From positions 12,984-76,983 of IMG/VR virus record IMGVR_UViG_3300033146_001643: a stretch of 64,000 nucleotides of DNA. One strand, 5' to 3'. Source of the stretch: a virus. A program made the translations under genes and the position numbers. Shown in pieces: positions 1 to 51,281 of the stretch; within the stretch, counting starts at the first letter, position 1; every line of letters begins with the position of its first letter. The notes beneath the pieces are model-generated. The model searched no databases. It saw nothing but the letters and a program-made list of their open reading frames with translations, and was not told the DNA's origin.

Positions 1-2
1 GG

Positions 3-3000
3 AACAGACCCGCATTTATAACTGATAATAAAGTAGAACAAATAACTAGGTATAAAAAAGTACTTAAAAATAAATTAAAAGCAATAGAATCGCAATTAAA
101 GACATTTGAAAATGCAGATAATAAAATAGTTTTAAATAATACTACTACTGAAAACGCATTAACCGATATAGATAATATTACTGATTTATTAGTAGAAGAG
201 GAGTTACTTAAAATGAATAGTTTTGTTAATAACGCTTCTTATAAATATATAATTAAACGAAGTACTTTATCTAAGGTAAAAGAACAAAAAAATAAATTAT
301 ATGAAGCTACAAAATTAGCACAAAAAAAAGCTAGGGATAAAAAAGTAAAAGCTGTTAAGACTAGAATGGCTAAAGATATTAAGAATACTATAACAAGAAA
401 TAAGAAAAAAGATATTAAGAAAGCACAAGAGGTTAATACTACAGATAACACAACTATTAAAAATACTAAAGACGTTGAAATTAAAAATACTACATCTAAA
501 GATAATAATACAATCATTTCTGGTGAAGTGATAGTAAAACAAGTACGAGCACAAGAAGTGGTAGACGCCCTAAAAGCTATATTAGTATTATTAGATGATA
601 CAGAAGCTGTGCAAAAAATAGTACAACAATTAGACGATTTTAACGCTAAAAATCAATACAAGGAACAATTATCTACACTAATTGCTATAACTAAACAATT
701 AGTAATTGAATATAATGGTGATAGTTTAATAACTGATATTATCAATAAACAATTAGCTGAAGTTATTGTTTTAGAAAATATCAGGAACGCGAATAATACG
801 CAAACAAAAGTTAGCAATAAAATAGATAATTTAACTAATGAGCAGTTATCTACAGAGAAAGAAATTGATATAATAAAGTCTAGTAAAGTGGCTAAACCAA
901 TTCTTATTACGCCACAAAATACCGAAGAATTGGTGGGTATAATAGATATTCTAAAAACTATAATATTATTATTACCTGAAAATAAAGATACAAAAATAGT
1001 ATCTAATAAATTAGATACTTTAAATACAGAAACCTTAGATAGTACTGATATAGATAACTTATTAGCTCTAACAAATAATATAATAAATAGTTCAAAAATA
1101 GATGTAGATATAAAATTAACAATACAAAATTTATATAGTAACGCTATTATAAATAATAAAACTAGGTTAGCTAATAATGAAATAACTAATGCTGCTAATG
1201 ATTTATTAAACACTTTTGAAGCTATAACTTCAGATACTACAGCTAGTGATGCAATTAAAGCTTCTAAACGTGGAGCTGCCTTTTTAAATTTAATTGCTCT
1301 AGCTGCTAAAGATGTTAAATCAATAGGGTTAGATATGTATAGAGATACATATAAAAGAGTACTAGTTGCTAATAATTGGAAAGAAAATGATATTAAACGT
1401 ATTCACGAAATGTTTAGTACGCTTATACCATTTGCTGAGACATCTGTTGGACATGCCCCAAGTACTTATGATATAGCGTGGCAATTTAAAAATACCGTTA
1501 ATTATAAAGGCGATATTATTGATATGGCAGTACAGACAGGTAATACTGGTAAACCTTATGGATTTAGTGAAAATTCAAGTATAGAGCAACAAACTGAACA
1601 AGTAGCTATCACAGCTAAAAATTATAAAAAAGTAAATAATCCTTCAGAAAGTATTGCCAATAAAGAACAGGAAGGTGTATTGGATAAATCTACTGGTAAA
1701 TATATTAATGTAGATAATGTTACTACGTTCAGTGTAGCAGATAATATAAATATTGGTGATGAAATAATATTTAAGGTTGATACTCATTATGACGGATATA
1801 TAATTACAGATATAGGGGAACGTGTCATTTGGGAAGATTATAGTAAAAATCTGGGTAAAACTTCTTCTGAATATATTAACAATGTACCAATAAAAATAAC
1901 TACTAAAGATGGTAAACTATTAGGGTATCTACATACTATTAATTGGTTATCCGAAAGTAATAATAATGTACAAGATAATATTGATATAGCAGCACACAGT
2001 ACGAATCTGAATCAAATACGTAGAACTATTATAAATAGTGATACTCCCATTATAAGTACTGTAACTGTTAAAAAAGCTGGTTCTATTAATACAACTTATG
2101 ATAATAGTAAAAATTTAGTATCAGTACAAATGCCTAATTTAAAAAATGGGGCTATAGTAGTATTTAGAAATGGTAAGTTTGAACAAGTTAAGAACAAATC
2201 TGTAGCTGTTGATAATTTACATTGGTTTAATGATTTTATATTTAGTGGCATGCCAGCTGTACTCACCACAATGAGTAATGGTGAAACTTATGCTGTACCA
2301 GTAACTAGTACTAAATTAGGAGATAAAGTAAATAGTGAGTTATTAAATGGTATAATTAATTTAATACAACTATACGCTTCTCCAAAAACAGAAGAAAATA
2401 AAATAAGTAGGAACAATATTGCAAAAGAATTTGGTTTTGATTCTTTATCAGCTACTACTTTATATACTATAATTTCTAAATTAGTTTATTTAGAGGGATT
2501 TACAGATGAAACTATAATGGATTTAGCTGCTAATCAAGATAGTAAAGTACGAGACTTATTTAATATTAATAAAAAGACTGGAACTATAAGATTTGCTACT
2601 ACAGCTACTAATGATAAGATTACACCTTATACTATATATGAGTTACATCAAAATGGGAATATTTTTATTAAAAAGCCTAATAAGGATAAACAAATTTTAG
2701 ATAAGCAACAACTTACGAATAGTTTAGATGATATACTTGTTAAATTATCAAGTATTCTAAAAAATAAAGTAGTTAATACTGACTTGGAGATGTTAAATAA
2801 CTCTGAAGTATTTATGATACCATATACTGATGATGACGGTATAAAAGTTGTTAAATTTGAATCGTATGAAGAGTTTATTAAAACTAAACTCCTTACCAAT
2901 ATAGTAGAAAAAAGACAATCTATTGGTGGTAAAATTAAAATAATTCATTCAGTACAATCTACCGTAGAATTTGACTCTACATTCGCTAATACTACTAGGC

Positions 3001-6000
3001 AAGAAGATTCAGATATAGCTACTAATATTAAAGATAGTATTATAGAAAAAGAAACTTCTCCCTTAGATGATTTATTTGGTAAGCAAGAATCAATGGAAGA
3101 ATACACAGCTAAACAACTAAGTAAGCCTAAATTGACAATAACTTCTGAACAGCAAGAACAGCTTAAAAATCTTGGCTATACACAAGAAGAAATTAATAAA
3201 ATTAACCCTGCTGTTGTTACTTCAATATTAACTTATAAAATTAAACCAGCAGTAGAAGTTACTATATCTACTGAAGAAAAAAATATTAAATTAAAAGCTG
3301 CAAGGGAAGCTAGATTACTTAAAAGAAAGTCTAAGAAAAAAACTACTAAAAAGATTATCAATAGTTTTGAAGCCATAACATCTAATAATAATACATTTTC
3401 TGCACTAAGCAGCACTGATAATATTACTAATATATTAGATGCTGCATTAAAAGAATCATTAATACCTGGATTATCTAGTTATGAACAACATACTGTATTA
3501 ATGAATACAATTAATATTATTAAAGACCATATTGACGGAGACTGGACTAAGGAATCTATATCTCAAACTATAGAAGCGATATTTAATCATTATGTTGATA
3601 TAAGTATAGCTTTAGATATAGTTAAAGATGAACAAGAATTAGACGTAATTGAAGATATAAGTGAGGAGTCTGAAGCTATACAAAATTTAATTGATACATT
3701 TAGAAAATTATCTTTACCAAGAATACTTAGTATGAAATCAATATATGATGTTATTTCTGATGATGCTAATTATAATAAATTAGTTGATATAGTATTAAAA
3801 GATTTACAAACACATGGAATACAACTAACACAACAAGTAGATGCAATTGATGAAACAACTGATTCTGAAATGGAAAATGATAACGAAACTAGTGATATTA
3901 CTATTAGAAATAAATGGAATATAGAAAATGCTAGCGTAAATACATTTGATAGAACGTCAAGTGAATTTAAAGCTATAATTAGAACTATTCCGCAAATGGA
4001 TTTTGTGCATAATACTGATGGCACAATCAAATTTGAAAATGGTGAACCTGTTATGCAAAAAATACTTAATGTAATGGGGACAACTGAATTTGTAGAACCA
4101 GAAAGAATACAACAAGAACTATTTTTATTATTACAAAAATTTAGTCATTTATCAACTGGTGAAAAATATAATGCTTATATTAAAACACTATTATCAACTG
4201 ACCATAACACAGCTCATCTAGTCGTACTTGGAAAAATGTTTCAAGAAGCATCTGACAAGATAAAAGCTGAATTAATAAATACAATTAGTACCCAAAAAAC
4301 TAATGCTGCTATAGTAATATGGAAAAAGAATTTAGGTGTTGATAATAATGTGCATTATGGTATGTATGTTAAAAATAGTTCTAAACCACATGAGCTGGAT
4401 AAACTTAGGAGTATTTGGAATAGTCATCAGACACAGCAAATAACTAATAAACTTATTGAGAACAACGCTAAGGGTTTACCAATAGTAAAAGCAACGAGAG
4501 TCGCTTATTGGCAAAAGTATTATATGTCGATGCTTACTGATATAAAAGTTAAGAATTTACTAATACACGCTGAAAATAAAAATAATAAAAATAATAAAAC
4601 AAAGCGTAAATTACTAGAATTACCAAATATGCCTGATAATTTAGTACTTAAACTATTTAATGAGATAGGGATAAATTTAACTCAAGAACAATTAAATGAA
4701 TTAAAACATATAGAGACTAATGAATTATTAAAATCATTTTTCAACCATAAAAATATGCCTAGCGTATTTAGAATAACTAGATATCCTGATTTATTTATAC
4801 CCAATGGACTTATTGATACTATGATTAAAGACATGGGAAATCCATTAATAGATGAGTTATTATTTGAAAATAACCCATTAACTAGTATTAACTCAAAAGT
4901 GCTAGATGCTATAGCTAATGTACAATTAAGTATAGAAGGTGGGTATGGTACAACTACATTCACTAGAGGTAACGGAACTATGCAGCAAACATATAGCCAA
5001 AATACAGCTTTATCGCATAAAATGAATAGACTATTGGATATAAAAGAATTACCTAATGGTGGACAAGAGATGTCAAGTGAATTTAATATGCACGCAAATA
5101 GTAATATACAATATAGTGGTAGAGATAATAATGGGGAACATAAATCTAAATGGTTAGATGATATTGAAAATGGTAAGGCAGGGCAATTCCAAGTTGGGGT
5201 TGTAGATAGCTTAAAACAGGGGGGTGTTGATAAATCTGCTGTTTTACGAACAAAAGCTACTAGAAATGAATTATTAGTTGATGAATTAGCTAGATTTACT
5301 AATTCTGGTAATAAAACAGCACAATTTTTAATATTAGCTTTTTCTGATAAAAGTACAGCAGCAACAATAACTGCACCTAAAATAGTTACAGATATAAGTT
5401 TTTCTAATAATAAACCTAAATTTAGACAACTACAACGTAATCAAATTTGGCAATATATATTATTACCTGAAGTAGATAGAATAAATAATCATGCAAAACG
5501 AATTATTGATGGCACTATTACTAGGAATACTTCTGGAAATCAATATTATGAAGGTGGTCTTTTATTTCAATTAACTCCATACTTGAATACACATGAATTG
5601 ATGCTAGGTGATAAGGCTATGAGAAACGAAGATGGTACAATTGATGTTACTCCAGAAACTAAGCAGTTATTAATAGATGTTGTAGAAAAAGAAATATTAG
5701 CTAGTGCAGAAGAAACTAAGGCTGACATGTTATCAGCAGGTATGTTTAGAACTAGAACAGTAAAAAATAAAAATGATAATTCAGAGACTACTATTGATGA
5801 ATTACATTTTGTAGATAAACAATATTTAAGAACACTAGATAATACATTAACTACTAAACAAAAATTACAATATATAGCAATAGATTTTGCTTTTAATAAA
5901 GCTATTGCTACGACGGAGTTTACTAAATTATTTGGTGGAGATATGGCTAATGTATATAAGAATAAAGGAATATCTAAAAATAAACAATTAAATACATTTA

Positions 6001-9000
6001 TCAAAAATAATAAATTTAATTATGTACAATATTTAAACGCTAATAAAAATATACTGCAACAACAAATAGCTAAACAATGGGGAGAATATATTAAGAGAAT
6101 GGCTAAAGATATAGCTCCTGGTATAGATGGGTATTGGGTTGATAGTGAGGGGAGAAATCATAATATATTTAATCAAGCATATATTAATGACTTATCCCTA
6201 GATTTAAGTGGGTATACTGGTGTGGAAGGAGGCGATGCTCAACAATATTCTACATTAAAAGAATTTGTTATTGTACAACATGGGTATGGAAAAATATCTG
6301 ATGACACTTATTCAGAACTAATGGCTCAAATTGAAGAAGTCGAACTTATAAATAAAGAAATTATTGATAAAAATAAAGATAAGCCATTGAGTGAAATACT
6401 ACCATTATTAGAACATGTGGATTTAACTAATGATTATTTAACAGAATTAGAAGAAGCTGTTAGAATATCACCATTAAAACCTGTATACGTAGGAGATGTA
6501 ATTAACGAAGAACAAGGTAGAATTGATAAAAAATATATTAAAGTAGCAGTATTCCCACTTATAGGGAACGCCACTACTGGTACAGAGATTGATTATTTAA
6601 GAAGAAGAATGGAGTATGAAGAAATAATTACTGGTAAGCCAGTTAATATAACATATACATCAGGTGTTAAAATTGGATTAAATAATGTAAGTACTGTATG
6701 GAAACCTAATACTACTACTAATGCTACACATGCTGTAGCTAATAAACACGGCATAGAAAATATGCAATTTGAACAATTGCATAGAGACGGGTATAGAATA
6801 CAACAAGAAGAACCAACACATGTTCATACAGAAACTGTAACAGTTACACAAGCTAACAAATTGTTATGGAGTGGTATTATGCGTATATTAGATAATACTG
6901 GTGTACTTTCTGGGTTTAAACATAATGGTAGTGATATGAACGTTGAGGAGTTAAAAGAGCAATTTCACACAATTAAAAAACAATTATCAAATAATGGCGT
7001 AGACCAGTTAAACAGGCGATTAGGATTGAACACTGACGGTACGTTTAAAGATTTAACTAAATTAGTAGCATTAATTAAAGATGAGATGTATACAAGAAAT
7101 TACCCAGAATCTGATATAGCTAGTATGGAAATGACGTCTATTGATGGACAACAACAAATTAAATTACCAATAGCTTTTCAAGGTAATGGACAACGCATAG
7201 AAGCATTAATTAATTCAATAATAACTAAAGAGACTATTAAAACTAAAATGCCTGGCAGGTCTTATGTTCAAGTATCTGGACATGGTATTGGGTCAGTCAA
7301 ATCATTAAGCAATACACAAAAATCTGATATAGTTTTTACTGAATTATATACAGATAACCATTTAAAATTTGTAACTAATGAAAATGGTGTTGTTACCTAT
7401 GCTCAATGTTTAGTGCCGTTTAATATAACAGCTCCAAATGGAGAATTATACAAAATAGAAGATTTTTTAATTACTAAAGATGGTAAACAATTATTAGATA
7501 CAACTAGACTACCTAAAGATATATTAAAACTAATAGGGTTACGTATTCCTAATCAAGGGCATAGTTCAATGTTATTACTTGAAATAGCTGGATTTTTACC
7601 AAGTTATATGCATGATAATATAATAGTACCCCCAGAAATAACTGCTCAAATGGGGGCTGACTTTGATTTTGACCATTTATATACATATAGTTTTAATACA
7701 GAACAAAGATTAACTGCTGAAGCATTTAATACTTATAAAGAACAATTTGATAATTTAATTGATACTAGGGGTATAATAAAATATATGAATCAACAAGTAG
7801 CTGAAAAATATGTAGGCTTACAAAATAAATTACAAACAGCTACAGAAGATGATAAGAAAATTATCAGTAAAGAAATTAAAAAGTTACAATTAAAAGCTAA
7901 AAAGAAATTATATATAGAGTTTTTAAATAATGGAAATAATGTTGTTATTGCTAAAATTAATAGTGCTGTAACAGATTATTCTATAGCTTCTAAAGAGGAG
8001 TTACAGAATGCTTATGTAGAAACATTCCATACTGTACTTAGTCATACTGCTGTGGCTAAAAAAATGACTACCCCATTAGATTTGCCTTATTTAGCTAGTG
8101 AGGCTGATAAAATAGATAAAATTATAAATAGTATAGGGGAAAATAATTTCAACCCATTATCAACACGATTCTCTACTGATATGTATTTAGCTAATCAAGC
8201 TGGTAAATTAGGTGTAGCTATACAAAGTATAGCGTCAACATTTTTAGCTTTAATAGAAGATAAGTCTTTAAAATTAACTAACTCGGTAAATAGAAATAAA
8301 ATTGACCTTAACATAAAAATTAGTACTGATAATGGAGTAATTAAATTAAATAAACTTGGTCTAGGTAATTATACCAACACTAAAGGTGATAATATATCAA
8401 ATGCTGACATATTGTTAATGTTACAAAACGAAGCTGTAGATAATGCAAAAAATCTTAACCTAGCATCTTTGTTTTATAATAAAGATACAGCTAGTATTTA
8501 TAATGTATTAGCTATGTTGATTAGTAACAATAAAGAAACTTTACCATTAGAATTTCTAGTTAGATTTATAAACCAGGAAGCTATTAAAAGTTATATTAAT
8601 AAATTACAGGAAACTAGTAGCACTATAGCAGAATTTACACCTAATGCTAAACAAAAAATATTTGATGATTTACTAAAAGAATATATTAATAAAGGGGCTA
8701 ATAAAACAGAAATTAATAATTATGTGGGAACAATATCTAATGGAAATTATACTTATACATATACAGAGTCAGACTTATTAAAAGCATTAAAAAGTAAAAA
8801 GCGGGATTCTAATTATTATCAATTACAAGCAGAAACATTAATATTTGTAAAAACATTAATGGATAACGTTATACAACCAGTTCAAAATGTAATATCAGCT
8901 ACTAATGGCATAGACACAGTTGGATTAGGAAAAGATATATTTACTACTATAGCTAAACAACAAGCAGTACAAACATATTTATTAGAAAATAGTGTAGTAC

Positions 9001-11579
9001 TTGGAGCTGGGTCTATAATATATGATACTGATAACAATTATACGGAAATTGGTACTATGTACAATAATAGTGTAAACTTATCATTAAAAATATTAAGTAC
9101 TACAACTAATAATGACGGAACTTCTATTTTACCTTACACGTCTAAGTACGCAGAAAAAATATTTATGAATTATGCTGATATATTAGGTAAAGACATACTA
9201 TCTGTACAAGATTATAAAGATATATGGCGTGCTACTAAACAGCTTATAGTTAGTAAAATTATATATAATACTACTAATGCAGATAGTTTAGCAAACTTAC
9301 GTAAAAGTTTATTTTTTGGAGATACTTCATTAGGAGTACAGCTTAAAAACGTAGAAAATGAGCCGTGGTTTAAAGAAAATAGATTCTTACTAAATGGTAT
9401 AAATAGATTAATTGTTAAAGATGATAATGTTATAAAATATAATAAAGAAACGTCTAAATATGAAGCATTAAACAATACAACTCCTATATTAGTTAAATAT
9501 GAAATGGGGGTTAAGAAAGATACAGATGACTATAGAAATATAGAAGCTATATTAGAGTTATTATATACATCTATTAGTGAATATGAAACTATAAAAGATA
9601 ATATATTAGATACAGATATACATAAAGCTATTATTACTAAATATGAATTTGCTCAAAGTTTAGTTAACTATACTATATTAGAAGGAGGTATACAAAATGC
9701 TCAAAACTGGGTTAAGTATTTACCAATATCATATTTAGAAGCTATAGGATTTAATAAATCAATTAGAGATATAAACTTTAATTCTATTGATGTATATGAT
9801 ACAATTAGTAGCCCAGAAGTAATTATACGACAATATCTACAACATAACCCTAAAAAGGCTAAAACTTTTAATCCACAATATGTTAAAAGCACTACTAAAA
9901 ATAATAATATAATCACATTACCATCTGCGTATGAAAAAAATTCTCCATATAGCGATATTATAAAAATAGAGATTATAGCTGGTGAAGAATATAAATCTTA
10001 TCCACAATATATTAAATATTATGATGTAGCAACACATAAATATTATTTGTATGAAAACACAGATAAAAATAAAAATGAAACTGATATAATATTTAGAAGA
10101 TTGCCACTACTAGGAACTGATAAGTTAGGATTTAATGAATATGATGGAACAATACAGTATGCTCAAAGTAATTTAACAGATAAACAAATCTATACAGAAC
10201 AAGAATTAATTGAATTAAACAAAGTTACCGAGATAGCAACTATTCCTAATATGTTATCTAATATATATGATGATACAATATTAACAACTCCTACTAGTGA
10301 AAGTATTTGGAATAGAGTAGAGGAGTTAGCTAATAACAATACTATGTTTAGTGTAGCAGCTAAAATATTGTTGGCGAATAAAGATTTAGCTAAAGAATTT
10401 GAAGTAACTATTAATAATTCAGGTGCACGTGGTATGACTAGAGTACATAATAATACAAAAGATTTAAAAACAATAGATATATCACCTAGACTATTTGAAA
10501 CTACTAAAACTAGTGGTAATGTAGAAGCACAACAAACTGAATTAAATGAGATAGTTTTACATGAAATGTTACATGGAGTATTATCTAAAATTATAAATAA
10601 TGCTATGAATGGTGTTGGCAATAATAATACCATTAAAGCAGTACAAGAATTAGATAACTTACGAAAAAGTATAATAAAAAATAACCAAGTTGAATTTAAT
10701 GCTTATATGGATACTAGGGGTGTATCAAGTACAGCTGAAAATATAGCTAAATTTGAAGGATTAACTAATATACATGAATTTTTTAGTTATGCTTTTACTA
10801 ATAGCAGTTTTCAAAACTTTTTAAATACACAGGCTAGAACAGATAATGGTAAGGGTACTTTATTAAATCAATTATTAGAGTTATTAAGCGTTATTTTAGA
10901 TACTACTATATTAGAGAATATTGCAGAAGATAAAGCTTTATATCAAGTATTAAGTATGGGAGTAACTGCTTTTACTAAAATCATACCGCCTAATACTCTG
11001 ATAAATAATAATTCAAATAATAATTATTCAGCTATAACATCAAAATCTTTAAATCAAGCTTATATAGATAATAAGTTAATTAATAAAGATAATACGTATA
11101 AACGTTATAGTATAACAGATAATAACTATAAAAAAATATTAAAACAAGTAGCTAATATAAATAAACAAAAATTACCATATAAAGCTAAAATAATAAAAAT
11201 AGTTGGAGAACGTGGAGATAATAGACCTATGGCGGCAATTGATAAATATTATAAATATTCTGTAGAACAACAATTATATAATAACTCTTTTGTAGAACCT
11301 ATAAAACCGTTATCTTTGCAGGATATACAAAATAAATATGAATTAACTACTAAAACTGGTATTATGAAAGCAGTAATACCAACAAATAGTAATTATGAAA
11401 GATTACTACAAACAACAATAAAAATAAATAATGATATAGCAGTTAATCATATAGCAAATGTTATTAAAACCAAAATTAACAATAAAACAATGTATACAAT
11501 AGAGTTATTAAATACATCAACTCCTGTTGATATATTATATGCTAAAGCTACTAATAACACTAATAAAATAGACTGTTAA
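3..11579 (+). CDS. Giant virion RNA polymerase polyprotein (crAss-like, phi14:2 gp66-type core) with C-terminal zincin metalloprotease domain; 5'-truncated by the window
   Basis: Frame has no stop from nt 3 to the listed ATG at 213. RIPNQGHSSM (7542) and MGADFDFD (DFDFD 7659-7673) are the two-barrel RNAP catalytic motifs. HEMLH (10560-10574) plus downstream HEFFSYAF is a zincin signature. Confidence 0.92.
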   Translation, partial: NRPAFITDNKVEQITRYKKVLKNKLKAIESQLKTFENADNKIVLNNTTTENALTDIDNITDLLVEEELLKMNSFVNNASYKYIIKRSTLSKVKEQKNKLYEATKLAQKKARDKKVKAVKTRMAKDIKNTITRNKKKDIKKAQEVNTTDNTTIKNTKDVEIKNTTSKDNNTIISGEVIVKQVRAQEVVDALKAILVLLDDTEAVQKIVQQLDDFNAKNQYKEQLSTLIAITKQLVIEYNGDSLITDIINKQLAEVIVLENIRNANNTQTKVSNKIDNLTNEQLSTEKEIDIIKSSKVAKPILITPQNTEELVGIIDILKTIILLLPENKDTKIVSNKLDTLNTETLDSTDIDNLLALTNNIINSSKIDVDIKLTIQNLYSNAIINNKTRLANNEITNAANDLLNTFEAITSDTTASDAIKASKRGAAFLNLIALAAKDVKSIGLDMYRDTYKRVLVANNWKENDIKRIHEMFSTLIPFAETSVGHAPSTYDIAWQFKNTVNYKGDIIDMAVQTGNTGKPYGFSENSSIEQQTEQVAITAKNYKKVNNPSESIANKEQEGVLDKSTGKYINVDNVTTFSVADNINIGDEIIFKVDTHYDGYIITDIGERVIWEDYSKNLGKTSSEYINNVPIKITTKDGKLLGYLHTINWLSESNNNVQDNIDIAAHSTNLNQIRRTIINSDTPIISTVTVKKAGSINTTYDNSKNLVSVQMPNLKNGAIVVFRNGKFEQVKNKSVAVDNLHWFNDFIFSGMPAVLTTMSNGETYAVPVTSTKLGDKVNSELLNGIINLIQLYASPKTEENKISRNNIAKEFGFDSLSATTLYTIISKLVYLEGFTDETIMDLAANQDSKVRDLFNINKKTGTIRFATTATNDKITPYTIYELHQNGNIFIKKPNKDKQILDKQQLTNSLDDILVKLSSILKNKVVNTDLEMLNNSEVFMIPYTDDDGIKVVKFESYEEFIKTKLLTNIVEKRQSIGGKIKIIHSVQSTVEFDSTFANTTRQEDSDIATNIKDSIIEKETSPLDDLFGKQESMEEYTAKQLSKPKLTITSEQQEQLKNLGYTQEEINKINPAVVTSILTYKIKPAVEVTISTEEKNIKLKAAREARLLKRKSKKKTTKKIINSFEAITSNNNTFSALSSTDNITNILDAALKESLIPGLSSYEQHTVLMNTINIIKDHIDGDWTKESISQTIEAIFNHYVDISIALDIVKDEQELDVIEDISEESEAIQNLIDTFRKLSLPRILSMKSIYDVISDDANYNKLVDIVLKDLQTHGIQLTQQVDAIDETTDSEMENDNETSDITIRNKWNIENASVNTFDRTSSEFKAIIRTIPQMDFVHNTDGTIKFENGEPVMQKILNVMGTTEFVEPERIQQELFLLLQKFSHLSTGEKYNAYIKTLLSTDHNTAHLVVLGKMFQEASDKIKAELINTISTQKTNAAIVIWKKNLGVDNNVHYGMYVKNSSKPHELDKLRSIWNSHQTQQITNKLIENNAKGLPIVKATRVAYWQKYYMSMLTDIKVKNLLIHAENKNNKNNKTKRKLLELPNMPDNLVLKLFNEIGINLTQEQLNELKHIETNELLKSFFNHKNMPSVFRITRYPDLFIPNGLIDTMIKDMGNPLIDELLFENNPLTSINSKVLDAIANVQLSIEGGYGTTTFTRGNGTMQQTYSQNTALSHKMNRLLDIKELPNGGQEMSSEFNMHANSNIQYSGRDNNGEHKSKWLDDIENGKAGQFQVGVVDSLKQGGVDKSAVLRTKATRNELLVDELARFTNSGNKTAQFLILAFSDKSTAATITAPKIVTDISFSNNKPKFRQLQRNQIWQYILLPEVDRINNHAKRIIDGTITRNTSGNQYYEGGLLFQLTPYLNTHELMLGDKAMRNEDGTIDVTPETKQLLIDVVEKEILASAEETKADMLSAGMFRTRTVKNKNDNSETTIDELHFVDKQYLRTLDNTLTTKQKLQYIAIDFAFNKAIATTEFTKLFGGDMANVYKNKGISKNKQLNTFIKNNKFNYVQYLNANKNILQQQIAKQWGEYIKRMAKDIAPGIDGYWVDSEGRNHNIFNQAYINDLSLDLSGYTGVEGGDAQQYSTLKEFVIVQHGYGKISDDTYSELMAQIEEVELINKEIIDKNKDKPLSEILPLLEHVDLTNDYLTELEEAVRISPLKPVYVGDVINEEQGRIDKKYIKVAVFPLIGNATTGTEIDYLRRRMEYEEIITGKPVNITYTSGVKIGLNNVSTVWKPNTTTNATHAVANKHGIENMQFEQLHRDGYRIQQEEPTHVHTETVTVTQANKLLWSGIMRILDNTGVLSGFKHNGSDMNVEELKEQFHTIKKQLSNNGVDQLNRRLGLNTDGTFKDLTKLVALIKDEMYTRNYPESDIASMEMTSIDGQQQIKLPIAFQGNGQRIEALINSIITKETIKTKMPGRSYVQVSGHGIGSVKSLSNTQKSDIVFTELYTDNHLKFVTNENGVVTYAQCLVPFNITAPNGELYKIEDFLITKDGKQLLDTTRLPKDILKLIGLRIPNQGHSSMLLLEIAGFLPSYMHDNIIVPPEITAQMGADFDFDHLYTYSFNTEQRLTAEAFNTYKEQFDNLIDTRGIIKYMNQQVAEKYVGLQNKLQTATEDDKKIISKEIKKLQLKAKKKLYIEFLNNGNNVVIAKINSAVTDYSIASKEELQNAYVETFHTVLSHTAVAKKMTTPLDLPYLASEADKIDKIINSIGENNFNPLSTRFSTDMYLANQAGKLGVAIQSIASTFLALIEDKSLKLTNSVNRNKIDLNIKISTDNGVIKLNKLGLGNYTNTKGDNISNADILLMLQNEAVDNAKNLNLASLFYNKDTASIYNVLAMLISNNKETLPLEFLVRFINQEAIKSYINKLQETSSTIAEFTPNAKQKIFDDLLKEYINKGANKTEINNYVGTISNGNYTYTYTESDLLKALKSKKRDSNYYQLQAETLIFVKTLMDNVIQPVQNVISATNGIDTVGLGKDIFTTIAKQQAVQTYLLENSVVLGAGSIIYDTDNNYTEIGTMYNNSVNLSLKILSTTTNNDGTSILPYTSKYAEKIFMNYADILGKDILSVQDYKDIWRATKQLIVSKIIYNTTNADSLANLRKSLFFGDTSLGVQLKNVENEPWFKENRFLLNGINRLIVKDDNVIKYNKETSKYEALNNTTPILVKYEMGVKKDTDDYRNIEAILELLYTSISEYETIKDNILDTDIHKAIITKYEFAQSLVNYTILEGGIQNAQNWVKYLPISYLEAIGFNKSIRDINFNSIDVYDTISSPEVIIRQYLQHNPKKAKTFNPQYVKSTTKNNNIITLPSAYEKNSPYSDIIKIEIIAGEEYKSYPQYIKYYDVATHKYYLYENTDKNKNETDIIFRRLPLLGTDKLGFNEYDGTIQYAQSNLTDKQIYTEQELIELNKVTEIATIPNMLSNIYDDTILTTPTSESIWNRVEELANNNTMFSVAAKILLANKDLAKEFEVTINNSGARGMTRVHNNTKDLKTIDISPRLFETTKTSGNVEAQQTELNEIVLHEMLHGVLSKIINNAMNGVGNNNTIKAVQELDNLRKSIIKNNQVEFNAYMDTRGVSSTAENIAKFEGLTNIHEFFSYAFTNSSFQNFLNTQARTDNGKGTLLNQLLELLSVILDTTILENIAEDKALYQVLSMGVTAFTKIIPPNTLINNNSNNNYSAITSKSLNQAYIDNKLINKDNTYKRYSITDNNYKKILKQVANINKQKLPYKAKIIKIVGERGDNRPMAAIDKYYKYSVEQQLYNNSFVEPIKPLSLQDIQNKYELTTKTGIMKAVIPTNSNYERLLQTTIKINNDIAVNHIANVIKTKINNKTMYTIELLNTSTPVDILYAKATNNTNKIDC

Positions 11580-11603
11580 TATAAACATATAAATAATAAA
11601 TAA

Positions 11604-14600
11604 ATGAGTTGCCCTAATAAAAATAATCCAGCCTGGAAGCTTCTAGTTATGAAACTAGGAGCTGACAATGCTATGCGAATATTTAAAGAGAATAATGATA
11701 ATATACCACCAACAGAGATAATTAATCAGTTGTCAATTATGTATAATAATACACAAACTAAAGTATCTATATCCAATCAAAAGATACCACAGGTATTATT
11801 AGATGAAATAAATACTAAGTATAACCTTGCTGATAGTAAAGGGAGATTACGTAAATTTAATAATGTTGAGGCTATGTTAGATAACCTCAATAGATTGCCA
11901 GGTTTTACTTTTATAGAAGTTAATAATAATGATGGAACTTCATCTATACAAGCATTTCAACAAGTTGTTAGTAATACAGATAATGATGCGGAATTTGCAG
12001 CTATAAGCAGTGAAAAGCAAAAAGATAAGCTTAAAACAAGGTATATTACATTACGTAATATAGAAGAGCTAGTTTTACCAGAAGATATTAAATTGGGGGT
12101 ATTAAAATTGATTGAACAACGAGACTTGATTAGGTCAACAATGAATAGAGACAAGTCAAAAACCGCCGCTATACAACTTGAAATTGACGATATTAATCAT
12201 GTAATTACAGAAATAATTATAAGTAAGAAATCATTAGAGCTTGTAGATATAATGGAACATAGGATTAATAGTGCTACTGCTAGGTTGAAAACTTCGGGGA
12301 ATTTAACCCCAACTGGGTTAAGAATACTGTATTCTGAAATATTAGTTTGGACTGATTTAATTAATAAATGGCAAGACCCAGCTAATTCTCATTTAGAGGC
12401 TCATAATAACCCAATTGTACAACAAAGAATAGCTGGGCTATATGGTTCTTTATCAATAATACAAGCGGATTTTTTACATCTACAACAACAGCTTTATAAA
12501 AACGAAATGAATAAGTTATTGCCACGTGAGCTTAAAGATGAAGACTTAACAAGAAGTAGGGAAATAACTAAAGCCAGGAGAATGACTACTGATTTATCTG
12601 AAGTACGAGATAGACTAGTACAATCTATAGATAAACTATTAAAAGGAGCGGATAGAAGTAGTATGAATGATTACAATAAACAAGCTAAGACTTTAGAAAA
12701 TAAACTAGCGTATTTTAGAAAAAATGGACTACAATTAGATAGTAAAGAATTTAGAGATGTATTATTGCAAAAAGATAAAGATGGTGAATTAACTGGTGAG
12801 TTGGTAGATGAGCGTAGTGCTTTGTTTGAAGATATGGAGAAGAAAAATATAGCTGACAAAATATCACTTAGGTATATGGAGTCTATAAAAGGAATGTTTA
12901 GAAAAGTAAAAAGTATAAAATCATGGGAGTCTTCTGTATATATAACAGTTGATTTAGCGATGTTGCAAAATAATAAAAAGGTTGAGTTAAATAGATTAGT
13001 CGACTTAGTTGGCGAAGTTAGAGCTAAAACACTAATAGTCGATGCTGAACTTAAATATGAAGAATATAAAGCTGCTTTAGCCCACATGAAAATTATATTG
13101 GAAGAGCGTATAAAATATGATAATGATTATAATGAGGCAGATGCTACAATAGAAAAATTTATAGGTGAACAGTCAGAAAAAAATGCTCTTATAGATGAAA
13201 AAGTTTCAAATGCGATTAGAAAATGGGAAGATAGGAATAACCCATTAAATTATACTAAATATATAACTGATACAACGCCTACCACTTATGCTATGGAGAC
13301 TAATTATGTAGCTAAAACATTAAATAGGTCTGCGTATAATGGTAAAGTGTTCAATGAGCAATTTAAAGTTATTGAGGATAATGATTTAATGTATGAATTT
13401 TATATATGGTATGTAGAACAATTGCAAATACAAAAAGCTAAATTACCGCAAGATGTACTAGATAATATGAGCTATACATTTTTACCTGAAGTGTACAAAG
13501 AAATGACTGAAAAATTATCTTCTGGGAAAAATGGATTAGCCAGTGTGCCTGGAAGAATATTCGAGATGTTAAAGTCTGGGGAAATAGCTGACTCATTTTT
13601 ACAGAGTATAGCTGTTGACAATAAGGTAGATAATGATAATTTATACGATAGTGCAGGAAATAAAAAGCGTGCTATACTAGTTAAATACACTAATAATAGT
13701 ATAGAAATACATAAAAAAACATTAGATAACTTAGTTGTTAATAAAAGTGTATTGGAGGCTAAGCAAGCTAGTGCTTTAAAAATAATAGCTAATAATCCAT
13801 CAGGCACAAAGACATATATAGATGCATATACTTATTTAAAAAAATCTAAAAAAGAATTAGTTAAAATTGAGAAACAAGTTGAGATAACAACTAAAAAATT
13901 AGCTACTATTAGGCGTGATAGAAGTACTGATTTAGTGGGTGTATTAAAAGCTTTTACATTAATGGCTACGTATCATCAGCATAAAGCTATAGTAGAAGAC
14001 CATGTATTAGCGGGGAGGCGGATATTAGAAAATATAGCTATGGTAGAAACCAAAGATGGCTCATTTGTAAATAAGTCAGAAGGGGCTGTGCAATTAAAAG
14101 CTGCAACTGATTATGCTATAAATGCTGTATTATACGAAGAACAGCGTATAGATAGGCAACCAAGTGATAATGCTATATATATTAATAAAGATACTAGACA
14201 ACAAAAGAAAAAAATAGATAATGAAATGAAAGCTTTGGATAAAGAGTTTGCTAATGGCGATATAACAACCGAGGAATATAATATTGCTATAAAACATAAA
14301 GAACAAGAATTGGGGGAATTAACTGGTAAAGCTGTAAGTTGGAGTAAAGTATTTGATAAATTCTTAACATATACACAATTAAAAGGACTTGGTTACAATG
14401 TACAATCAGCAGCTATCAATTTAATATATGGGTTGATTTCTAATCAAATGTATGCAGCGTCCTCGGAAGATATAGATAATAAATCATTAGTAGAAGCTTT
14501 TAAGATTATGAAGGGTAGTATGATACAAAAAACATCTGGGATAGCTGTGGGTGAAGCTCGTAAAGTAGAAGCATTAATAGATAAATTTAATGTACTATTT

Positions 14601-15626
14601 GAAGTAAGTGAAGCTGCTTATGGAACTAAGAACACTTTATCCGACAAAATAAAGAAATTGGGAATATTATTGCCGTATGAGGGGCAAAAACGTGGGGAAT
14701 ATATTATACAAGGAATGTTATTAGTAGCTATGTTAAAGAGCAAAACGATACAAATTAATGGTAAAAATATAGCATTATACGAAGTATTTAAAGAGAATGG
14801 TGAATGGGATACTGAGAAATACGGAGAAGAACAAGAAGAATGGAGTACAGATGTTACTGGTTTAAGTAATAATAGTTATACTAAATTTAGGGATAGGATT
14901 ATACAAACTATAAAACGTGTTCATGGTAATTATGACCCTACATCAATGGTAGAGGGAAAAGCTACTAGTATAGGTAGAATGTTATTCCAGTTTAAATCTT
15001 GGATTCCAGCAGGTATAACTACTAGATTTGAGCGTAAACGGTATGACCAGTATTTAGACAGAGATGTTAAAGGCAGATATAGAAGTATTAAAGATATAGG
15101 CTATGGCACAGGTTTAAAGATAATGGCTAATCCATCTTATATACTCGGATTAAAGAAAATACAACTTGATTCTTTAGGGAGATTAGCAACTGCCGAGGAT
15201 TTAACTAATATGAAGTATAATCTACAAGAGATGCGTTGGGTATTATTATCTGTAATAACTAGTCTTACCTTAGCTATGTTAGGAGCTTTTGCGAGTAATG
15301 ATGACGAGGAAGAAAAATTGATTACCTTATTAATTAATAATGCAACTAGGTTACAGGGAGATATGACATTTTATTTAAACCCTATGACTCCAATAGATTT
15401 AGTTAAGAGCCCAGTAGCAGTATTAAAATCATTTACAGATATAGTTAAATTAGTAGATGCTTCTACTAAAATTATATATAAAGATGACCCTTATTACAAT
15501 ACAGAATATTACTTACGTAAAGTAGCTAAGATAATACCATTTTTTAGTAACGTTGACCAACTATATGGTGCTACACAACGTACTTATGATAAGCACCCAA
15601 TAATTGATGCGTTGATTAAGAAGTAG
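11604..15626 (+). CDS. Large virion-ejected (cargo) protein, 1340 aa
   Basis: Follows the vRNAP. MSCPN N-terminus and C-terminal VHGNY...GRMLFQFKSW plus a hydrophobic helix are typical of crAss-like ejection proteins. Confidence 0.75.
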   Translation: MSCPNKNNPAWKLLVMKLGADNAMRIFKENNDNIPPTEIINQLSIMYNNTQTKVSISNQKIPQVLLDEINTKYNLADSKGRLRKFNNVEAMLDNLNRLPGFTFIEVNNNDGTSSIQAFQQVVSNTDNDAEFAAISSEKQKDKLKTRYITLRNIEELVLPEDIKLGVLKLIEQRDLIRSTMNRDKSKTAAIQLEIDDINHVITEIIISKKSLELVDIMEHRINSATARLKTSGNLTPTGLRILYSEILVWTDLINKWQDPANSHLEAHNNPIVQQRIAGLYGSLSIIQADFLHLQQQLYKNEMNKLLPRELKDEDLTRSREITKARRMTTDLSEVRDRLVQSIDKLLKGADRSSMNDYNKQAKTLENKLAYFRKNGLQLDSKEFRDVLLQKDKDGELTGELVDERSALFEDMEKKNIADKISLRYMESIKGMFRKVKSIKSWESSVYITVDLAMLQNNKKVELNRLVDLVGEVRAKTLIVDAELKYEEYKAALAHMKIILEERIKYDNDYNEADATIEKFIGEQSEKNALIDEKVSNAIRKWEDRNNPLNYTKYITDTTPTTYAMETNYVAKTLNRSAYNGKVFNEQFKVIEDNDLMYEFYIWYVEQLQIQKAKLPQDVLDNMSYTFLPEVYKEMTEKLSSGKNGLASVPGRIFEMLKSGEIADSFLQSIAVDNKVDNDNLYDSAGNKKRAILVKYTNNSIEIHKKTLDNLVVNKSVLEAKQASALKIIANNPSGTKTYIDAYTYLKKSKKELVKIEKQVEITTKKLATIRRDRSTDLVGVLKAFTLMATYHQHKAIVEDHVLAGRRILENIAMVETKDGSFVNKSEGAVQLKAATDYAINAVLYEEQRIDRQPSDNAIYINKDTRQQKKKIDNEMKALDKEFANGDITTEEYNIAIKHKEQELGELTGKAVSWSKVFDKFLTYTQLKGLGYNVQSAAINLIYGLISNQMYAASSEDIDNKSLVEAFKIMKGSMIQKTSGIAVGEARKVEALIDKFNVLFEVSEAAYGTKNTLSDKIKKLGILLPYEGQKRGEYIIQGMLLVAMLKSKTIQINGKNIALYEVFKENGEWDTEKYGEEQEEWSTDVTGLSNNSYTKFRDRIIQTIKRVHGNYDPTSMVEGKATSIGRMLFQFKSWIPAGITTRFERKRYDQYLDRDVKGRYRSIKDIGYGTGLKIMANPSYILGLKKIQLDSLGRLATAEDLTNMKYNLQEMRWVLLSVITSLTLAMLGAFASNDDEEEKLITLLINNATRLQGDMTFYLNPMTPIDLVKSPVAVLKSFTDIVKLVDASTKIIYKDDPYYNTEYYLRKVAKIIPFFSNVDQLYGATQRTYDKHPIIDALIKK

Positions 15627-50180: not shown

Positions 50181-51281
50181 ATGGCAGGAGAAATTTCAGT
50201 ATCTATTAATGATGATACAGGAAGTATAACTACAGAAAATGTTACTACTTCAACAACACCGCAGACAGGAGAGAATTTAGAATTAGCTAATGATAAAACT
50301 GGGGAAACAAAATCCGCCCCAGAGAAACTTGAAGTAAGTTTACCAGATAAAGAAAATGCATCTAATAATACCGGAGGCGATAACGAAATTAGTAAAAATA
50401 ATTCTAATGATAATGTAGAAAAAAAAACAGACCAAGATTATGATGCAGCCGAGATATATAAGTATTTAGCAGATACTAATGTATTACCTATGATTGCTGT
50501 GGATAAAAATTTTGATTTTGAGGATTTAAGTACAGCTATTGAAACTAGAATTAATGACACAATAATTAGTAGAGAAAAACAATTTTTAGAAACTATGCCT
50601 AAAAAAGCAGCTGATTTATTTAGTCATTTACGTGCTGGTGGTGAGGTAAGTGATTTTCAAGCTGTACATAGTAATAGTTATAGCAATATACCAAAACAAT
50701 CATTAAAAGATGATACAGATTTACAAAATAGTATTATAACTGACTATTATAAAAAAACTACTAGTTGGGACGAAAAAAGTATTAAAACTGCTATAGATAG
50801 AATGAATACAGCAGGGAGTACCGAAAAGGAGTCAACTGCTATGTTAAAATTTTTACAGGATATAGAATTAGAAAATCAACGTGATTTAGCATATAATACT
50901 AAACAACAACAATTACAAATAGAGCAGCAACATAAAGAATTAATTAATAATGTTACTAATACTGTATTAAATACTAGAGACTTTTTAAATATCCCTTTAA
51001 ATATGGGGACTAAAAATAGGATATTAGATAATGTTATTAACGATGTTACTAGAAATAAATTAAATAGTAACTTCGAGAAATATAGAGTGCAGTTATCAAT
51101 GTTAGATGAGTTTGGCTTCTTTGATAACCCTTCTAAATTTTTACAAAACTTAGGGGTAGAACAAAAACAAAATGATGGTAATAAAAAACAATCTTATAAT
51201 ATGAAGAGAAGACCATCTATAATTACAAAAGGTAAAGTACGTAATTTAGATAAATTATTTGCTGACCCTTTTAAATATTAA
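50181..51281 (+). CDS. Scaffold-like acidic protein (conserved gene between portal and MCP)
   Basis: Synteny; disordered acidic N-terminus and coiled coil. Confidence 0.65.
   Translation: MAGEISVSINDDTGSITTENVTTSTTPQTGENLELANDKTGETKSAPEKLEVSLPDKENASNNTGGDNEISKNNSNDNVEKKTDQDYDAAEIYKYLADTNVLPMIAVDKNFDFEDLSTAIETRINDTIISREKQFLETMPKKAADLFSHLRAGGEVSDFQAVHSNSYSNIPKQSLKDDTDLQNSIITDYYKKTTSWDEKSIKTAIDRMNTAGSTEKESTAMLKFLQDIELENQRDLAYNTKQQQLQIEQQHKELINNVTNTVLNTRDFLNIPLNMGTKNRILDNVINDVTRNKLNSNFEKYRVQLSMLDEFGFFDNPSKFLQNLGVEQKQNDGNKKQSYNMKRRPSIITKGKVRNLDKLFADPFKY

Follow-up and report, generated by a model that had tools for sequence, protein, structure and literature searches.

A lineage-private seam peptide in the joints of giant crAss-like phage cargo proteins, and its possible role in proteolytic processing

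The cargo genes and a recurring hexapeptide

The uncultured phage in the IMG/VR virus record IMGVR_UViG_3300033146_001643 encodes two giant cargo proteins side by side, and a hexapeptide, [FY]xA[IL][TS]S, recurs in both. We analyzed bases 12984-76983 of this 76,983-bp record, which carries 114-bp terminal repeats. (These 64,000 bases are the window, and positions below are window positions unless we say otherwise.) The hexapeptide is found in linkers and at conserved positions, and its copies within the genome evolve together. A conserved seam peptide seems to mark the flexible joints of the cargo chain, and the hexapeptide would be the version private to this phage. We take the seam peptide to be real and functional, and it may be a cutting site.

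The phage is crAss-like: PHROGs for the terminase, the portal, and the major head protein were detected in its genome, and so were the Pfam domains PF25710 (CrAss_Ring_3_4) and PF25725 (crAss_CARG1, cargo protein 1), both above cut-offs. The crAss-like phages are the most abundant human gut viruses (PMC10172136). The two cargo genes and the copies of the motif are:

1..11579, + strand: open reading frame (ORF) of the giant cargo polyprotein (4,552 amino acids, aa; translation); the ORF begins at genome position 10904, which is 2,079 nt before the window
1215..1232, + strand: FEAITS of seam 1, aa 1099-1104 (translation)
1245..1265, + strand: SDAIKAS, a second motif-like element after seam 1, aa 1109-1115 (L-INS-i alignment)
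3366..3413, + strand: seam 2, the tandem FEAITS-NNNT-FSALSS, aa 1816-1831, with FEAITS at 3366-3383 (aa 1816) and FSALSS at 3396-3413 (aa 1826) (translation)
11025..11042, + strand: YSAITS of seam 3, aa 4369-4374, 37 aa past the zincin core (below) and 178 aa before the C-terminus (translation)
11604..15626, + strand: the next cargo protein, 1,340 aa, a homologue of crAss001 gp49 (E = 2e-6), whose only cysteine is residue 3 (11610-11612)
11994..12011, + strand: FAAISS in the next protein, aa 131-136 (translation)

A sequence-only reading of the window had listed five such hexapeptides, and translation finds every one of them exactly where it had been placed, including the copy about 130 aa into the next protein (FAAISS, at aa 131). 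The segments into which that reading divided the polyprotein were right for the parts after seam 1 (about 717 aa, about 2,538 aa, and a tail of 178 aa), but the N-terminal part is 1,098 aa, as the ORF starts upstream of the window. The claim that conservation is at the protein level, with different codons, also holds. The two FEAITS copies have three synonymous differences and their flanking DNA is identical at only 44 of 78 positions, so this pair is not a DNA repeat. We also considered a longer internal repeat that carries the motifs along, and rejected it: BLASTP gives only weak low-complexity alignments, none of which aligns the motifs.

Within the two giant proteins the pattern occurs five times, as against 0.034-0.039 copies expected from composition, and all five occurrences of A[IL][TS]S have [FY]x in front. 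Outside of these two proteins, there is no copy in any ORF of at least 90 aa in the whole 76,983-bp genome. Because the motif was picked post hoc, we enumerated all patterns of the same class (288 templates per hexamer, with each position being a residue, a class, or a wildcard), and the motif itself was not used as input. (We chose the residue classes ourselves; FY, IL, and ST are standard groupings.) [FY]xA[IL][TS]S was the single best enumerated pattern in the two proteins (p = 7e-10), and none of 37 global or local shuffles reached this value (the best shuffle gave 2e-9 and the median was about 1e-7). The sequence-only reading had proposed a count against shuffled controls as one check, and the count is above chance: five copies where about 0.035 are expected, no shuffle that matches, and no copies in the rest of the genome. 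The same enumeration gave best patterns of 1e-8 to 3e-8 in the giant proteins of three relatives. Given the scores of the shuffles and of the relatives, the look-elsewhere-corrected significance is only moderate (p of about 0.005-0.03).

Could the motif be a chance recurrence, or no more than a generic helix cap without any specific function? It was defined after the fact; by our own estimate, 5,900 low-complexity residues should contain about two exact 6-mer repeats; and [TS]-S ahead of a helix is a common N-cap. Also, a test of BLOSUM62 neighbours of seed peptides did not single out the motif (FSALSS ranked fourth, p = 1.5e-4), although this test is too permissive. On the other hand, the motif tops an unbiased enumeration that no shuffle equals, cognate peptides lie at a like distance from the same domain in three more lineages, and the phage Fpv1 has a private motif of its own at matching coordinates (both discussed below). 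We consider chance to be very improbable.

The polyprotein can be aligned to its relatives by BLASTP in four blocks: A (aa 10-440), B (about 1197-1711), C (about 1976-3277), and D (about 3295-4326). Every one of the four sites in the polyprotein is outside these conserved blocks, in the gaps that BLAST cannot align. The landmarks within the blocks, and the last residue, are:

1629..2993, + strand: Block B, a confident alpha/beta domain between seams 1 and 2, aa 1237-1691 (AlphaFold; predicted local distance difference test, pLDDT, of 67-91)
7659..7673, + strand: DFDFD, the catalytic motif of the RNA polymerase (RNAP), aa 3247-3251 (motif search)
10527..10916, + strand: zincin-like helical core, aa 4203-4332, with HEMLH at 10560-10574 (aa 4214) and Glu4286 at 10776-10778 (AlphaFold; pLDDT 78-93)
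11574..11576, + strand: C-terminal Cys4552, the last residue of the polyprotein (translation)

We made AlphaFold models of aa 1040-1900 (from an alignment of eight sequences) and of aa 3990-4552 (from 15 sequences); both alignments are shallow. All four copies in the polyprotein fall in segments with pLDDT below 50, outside the confident folds at aa 1237-1691 and 4203-4332. Burial within folded domains, which the sequence-only reading had named among the observations that would count against it, is thus not what we find for these four. Each FEAITS closes a predicted helix (a basic one at seam 2), after which come a loop and a new helix, and YSAITS is in coil (pLDDT of about 30).

The polyprotein's RNAP core is similar to crAss001 gp50 (BLASTP, E = 4e-23), and neither Pfam nor PHROGs has a family for either giant protein. 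Homologues were detected in crAss001 virions (PMC10172136), and by analogy our polyprotein is probably virion-packaged and injected. For Block B, Foldseek gave no fold match in the PDB. A small helical element, predicted with fair confidence (aa 1739-1771, LKNLGYTQEEINK..., window 3135-3233), is inserted between Block B and seam 2. A similar L-x-x-LGYT element is found elsewhere in one relative (P0052), and another (P0054) has a SAP-like stretch after Block B.

Cognate seam peptides in relatives

Relatives provide the stronger evidence for the motif. A search with the RNAP core found 50 giant homologues. The closest relatives (P0002, P0003, and P0004) are 39-43% identical to our protein in the RNAP core, and all have HEMLH. 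A motif scan did not find the strict [FY]xA[IL][TS]S in these three proteins, in the loci L007 and L008, or in the cultured Flavobacterium phage Fpv1, and it is sporadic among further relatives (two hits in 50 proteins). As the strict motif is absent from close relatives, it is private and not a family-wide code. The three closest relatives do have a cognate peptide, E-Y-D-N-A-I-x-F/Y, which is in an acidic context and in the matching unalignable linkers. At seam 1 they have EYDNAINYN, EYDNALQFS, and ESDAAINFT; at seam 2 they have EFENAISYS, EWDDAVLYT, and EDAILYS; and there are C-terminal cognates, KYDNAIEFN and DQAIDYI, at about 20-25 residues from the C-terminus. In P0003 and P0004, D-x-A-[ILV]-x-[FY] is enriched (three to four copies, as against 0.28 expected). 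L-INS-i aligns our SDAIKAS with the relatives' Y/S-D-N/A-A-I. With four residues between FEAITS and SDAIKAS, seam 1 may, like seam 2, be a tandem pair.

Global MAFFT alignment misaligned the seams, so we placed them by anchoring with a hidden Markov model (HMM) of Block B and by local L-INS-i alignments. Seam 1 is 132 aa upstream of Block B in our protein and 135, 138, and 140 aa upstream in P0003, P0004, and P0002, and these four lineages have no BLAST-detectable similarity at the seam itself. In the relatives, 40-56 aa separate Block B from the seam 2 motif; in our protein the distance is 126 aa, owing to an insertion of about 80 aa. The arrangement in Fpv1 is the same: its gp33, of 4,401 aa, carries DYDID at 3222 and HEVIH at 4179 and is followed by gp34. 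Fpv1 also has a private motif, NDMIxN with an acidic D-F in front, at aa 1189, 1847, and 4385, as compared to aa 1099, 1816, and 4369 in our protein. (Because the Block B HMM did not detect Fpv1, this match is one of coordinates only.)

All of the seam versions have in common a core of two residues, a small one (A or M) and then I, L, or V. Across nine-residue windows, copies within a genome share 4.3 of 9 residues on average, whereas the same seam in different genomes shares 2.2 of 9, which is similar to the value for different seams (2.0 of 9). Since the copies are alike within a genome and unlike between genomes, a single co-evolving partner probably reads all of the copies in a genome. Other searches did not extend this comparison. 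Those with aa 1001-2000 and aa 4001-4552 (against loci) and with aa 1000-1900 (against near-length proteins) gave nothing useful, nor did an alignment-based search (A1) of viral and metagenome contigs, and an exhaustive search of representative proteins with aa 1050-1850 gave only six hits.

What might the partner be? One possibility is that the seam peptides are docking or packaging tags and are not cut: they would all bind to one putative receptor (perhaps the portal barrel, a scaffold, a chaperone, or the inner surface of the capsid), whose task would be to load the giant chain, put it in order, or anchor it in the capsid's cargo zone. The flexible and often acidic context, the several copies, the positional conservation, and the concerted evolution fit a tag too. 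Also, the relatives have copies near protein termini, as is usual for targeting peptides, and no head protease is recognisable among the genome's proteins by Pfam or PHROG. However, the motif of our phage has neither the acidic residues in front nor the aromatic residue behind that are seen in the relatives' peptides, which would be a large change for a binding motif. Computation does not separate docking from cleavage. We view a tag as possible but somewhat unlikely.

A scaffold or head protease is often encoded between the genes for the portal and the major head protein. In this phage a 366-aa ORF (window 50181-51281) lies between those two genes; it has no Pfam or PHROG match.

Split and fused modules and terminal cysteines

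Block B is also found in shorter, separate proteins: P0054 (756 aa), P0052 (1,675 aa), and P0055 (1,826 aa). The first residue of P0054 corresponds to about 13 aa past seam 1. P0052 and P0055 hold blocks A and B only and end about 150-190 aa past the equivalent of seam 2. In particular, P0052 has a seam-2-like FENKI and then runs on for about 190 aa, so the natural split is at the start of block C (about aa 1976-1999) and not at the motif. In crAss001, the zincin is at the end of gp47. At the other extreme, a single ORF of more than 6,385 aa in IMGVR_UViG_3300035698_002871 (L007:1133-20287) joins the polyprotein to a homologue of our next protein (E = 3e-69). Fusion of modules into one ORF has been described for crAss-like phages (10.1101/2020.03.07.982082). 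Judging from these sequences, the modules are shuffled, split, and fused among relatives, and the seams are near the joints but not exactly on them.

In our phage the polyprotein and the next ORF are in one frame, and window 11577-11603 consists of TAA, seven codons, and a second TAA. We considered readthrough of the stop codons between the two ORFs, which is unlikely because there are two TAA stops and because the corresponding pair in Fpv1 is in different frames.

The cysteines of these proteins suggest a different kind of connection. Only about 0.07% of the residues in the cargo proteins are cysteine, and 39% of all cysteines are in the first 8 or the last 12 residues. Among 55 proteins, 35 have a C-terminal cysteine and 25 have a cysteine at positions 3-7, and five proteins without a terminal cysteine have no cysteine at all in 4,130-5,660 aa. 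Our polyprotein has two cysteines in 4,552 aa, Cys3163 and the last residue. A C-terminal cysteine faces an N-terminal cysteine in the next protein in our phage, in Fpv1 (gp33 has a single cysteine, at 4400 of 4401, and gp34 has one at residue 3), in L008, in P0002, and in crAss001 (the single cysteine of gp47 is at 2339 of 2341, gp50 has Cys5 and Cys2404 of 2412, and the only cysteine of gp49 is Cys5). Where the cargo proteins are fused, the pair is lost: the L007 ORF has no cysteine in 6,385 aa. This pattern suggests a predicted head-to-tail chain of disulfides. As the cysteines are at facing ends and are lost upon fusion, the chain is probably kept continuous in the virion.

The protein downstream of P0002's polyprotein (L010:23515-25278) starts with MAHC and has its own HEIVH near aa 290; the next protein in our phage has no HExxH. 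The 178-aa tail past YSAITS (window 11043-11576) seems to consist of two modules of about 85 aa, whose mutual similarity is weak (p = 0.012), and the similarity of a tail module to the N-terminus of the next protein is not significant (p = 0.24-0.42).

The ends of the relatives' proteins raise another possibility, which is that each seam is the relic of a connector. A once-separate cargo protein would have ended in a linker, the motif, an amphipathic helix, and a terminal cysteine, and this end would have plugged into the next module; after fusion it would persist as an internal hinge, and the copies would have no common reader. A measured precedent is found in cyanopodophage A4, where the C-terminal helix of gp27 is inserted in a gp26 cleft and a disulfide between Cys1715 and Cys5 holds it there (PMC12002296). 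Consistent with a connector, P0003 and P0004 end with the seam motif, a helix of about 16 aa, and the terminal cysteine, and AlphaFold predicts a helix after every motif in the polyprotein. The terminal cysteines and their loss upon fusion, as well as the varied splitting and fusion of the modules, would also be explained. But independent docking partners in cis would not keep the copies in one genome alike and changing together. Furthermore, the seam 2 equivalent in P0052 is about 190 aa from the end of that protein, and our own C-terminal copy is 178 aa from the terminal cysteine. We think that a connector relic is improbable.

Proteolytic processing and known systems

The first question for a cutting role is whether there is an enzyme. 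In the HEMLH motif, the two histidines and the glutamate of HExxH are invariant in 15 aligned sequences. Glu4286, a presumed zinc ligand, is invariant in four sequences and nearly invariant in 15. The best structural match for the zincin core is a tetrameric ejection protein, PhiM1 gp48 (8vb2_A; Z score 9.1 over 109 residues, root-mean-square deviation 4.5). Ordinary zincins score 4-5.5 against the core (5.5 for the putative metal-dependent hydrolase 3dl1 and 4.0 for the centre of lethal factor). The sequence matches among these podophage proteins (PhiM1 gp48 and the internal virion protein 9sfn_G) are weak, with E = 0.003 for 9sfn_G and a further value of E = 0.078. Because of its resemblance to the ejection and internal virion proteins of podophages, the core, a putative zincin, may be a general ejection-protein module.

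Proteolytic processing is the single most likely reading of the seam peptides, and we give it a probability of roughly 0.38; the cutting, its site, the enzyme, and the timing are what we infer. Peptides that are in unalignable linkers of low pLDDT, that have cognates in relatives, and that are alike within a genome resemble the cleavage code of one co-evolving enzyme. We favor cleavage because of this concerted evolution and linker location, because the polyprotein keeps an intact HExxH (and the conserved downstream Glu), because of the hydrophobic residue at the would-be P1' position, and because cleavage has been suggested before. A hydrophobic P1' residue is what thermolysin-like zincins prefer, and a cut before the I, L, or V of the core would agree with this. 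As for the earlier suggestion, it was made for the fused "huge polyproteins" of crAss-like phages (10.1101/2020.03.07.982082) and was a suggestion only; no seam motif or cleavage site is described there or in PMC10172136.

We envision that the cargo chain would run from the N-terminal module through Block B and the RNA polymerase with its zincin to the gp49-like next protein. A protease would cut in or beside the invariant small-aliphatic pair (A or M, then I, L, or V), and each cut would separate modules or trim tails. The built-in HEMLH zincin, which is the only candidate enzyme seen in the genome, could be that protease. Cutting during or after delivery seems more plausible than cutting in the head. 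A fuller version is that the cargo travels as a continuous thread, held together by fusion or by terminal disulfides, and that after injection the reduction of the disulfides and the cutting of the seams by the zincin would free the RNA polymerase. This combined scenario is doubtful.

Several observations weigh against processing. First, a docking or connector role fits about as well as cleavage by the zincin does. Second, the N4 giant virion RNA polymerase (vRNAP) works uncleaved. Third, the sequence-only reading had the motifs mark domain borders; they do lie in linkers between modules, with pLDDT below 50, but between them and the confident Block B domain there are more than 100 aa, and the natural gene split near seam 2, as seen in P0052, is about 150 aa past the motif. 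Fourth, that reading expected positional conservation in relatives. The cognate peptides at seams 1-3 have it, but the strict motif was not found there, and the FAAISS of the next protein has no positional counterpart, so that the evidence for this copy is the within-genome statistics alone. Fifth, the relatives' C-terminal copy is only 11-25 aa from the end, so a cut there would release only a small peptide. Sixth, in the AlphaFold model of aa 3990-4552, neither YSAITS, nor the tail, nor the C-terminal cysteine is docked in the zincin cleft (the tail is of low confidence). Seventh, the zincin's nearest solved relatives are podophage ejection and internal virion proteins, and it could act on the cell wall, a role that Drobysheva et al. 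(10.1101/2020.03.07.982082) also suggest. Eighth, that the proteins have terminal cysteines, and that fully fused forms lack them, suggests that selection keeps the chain unbroken in the virion. Finally, no cleavage product is on record, and the study of the crAss001 virion makes no mention of cleavage or of a protease (PMC10172136).

Whichever role is correct, the question addressed is how the giant injected RNA polymerase proteins of crAss-like phages are packed, delivered, and activated. A lineage-private and positionally conserved seam peptide gives the exact residues to look for in the processing of these polyproteins. As the Flavobacterium phage Fpv1/FpV4 carries such a motif and is cultured, the question is open to standard virion proteomics. 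Cut sites would mean that a phage ejection protein contains a protease-substrate code; uncut sites would make the seam peptide a new docking element of the cargo chain.

Among known systems, the closest is the cargo module of the Crassvirales (gp47, gp50, and gp49 of crAss001; gp65, gp66, and gp67 of Cellulophaga phage phi14:2; and the fused forms). It shares with our locus the DFDxD core of the RNAP, the adjoining gp49 homologue, the HExxH of the zincin, the nearby crAss ring and cargo protein 1 domains, and the fusion of modules. In contrast to crAss001, where the zincin ends gp47, the zincin here follows the RNAP. The N4 vRNAP belongs to a different family, the T7-like single-subunit RNAPs, and we know of no seam motif in it. 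It is nonetheless also a giant RNA polymerase that is packed in the virion and injected, with flanking packaging and ejection modules (PMC13434306).

The gp27-gp26 joint of cyanopodophage A4 resembles the junction here in that our polyprotein ends in a cysteine and the only cysteine of the next protein is at residue 3. A4 is from a different phage group, no sequence similarity was detected, and no recurring seam peptide has been reported for it (PMC12002296). The HExxH helical core is common to our polyprotein and to the internal virion or ejection proteins of T7-like podophages (PhiM1 gp48, 8vb2, and 9sfn chain G). Neither of those proteins, each of about 1,300 aa, is an RNAP polyprotein, and the shared part is a module of only about 130 aa.

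Finally, several viral maturation proteases have short codes: L/I-x-E for T4 gp21, S/A/G-x-E for phiKZ gp175, and Q/G for picornavirus 3C. Our motif lacks the acidic or glutamine signature at P1, there is no recognisable head protease, and the candidate zincin is embedded in its own putative substrate, unlike in those systems. Like those codes, however, the seam peptide is short and degenerate, is found in exposed linkers at domain joints, is alike within a genome, and differs between lineages.

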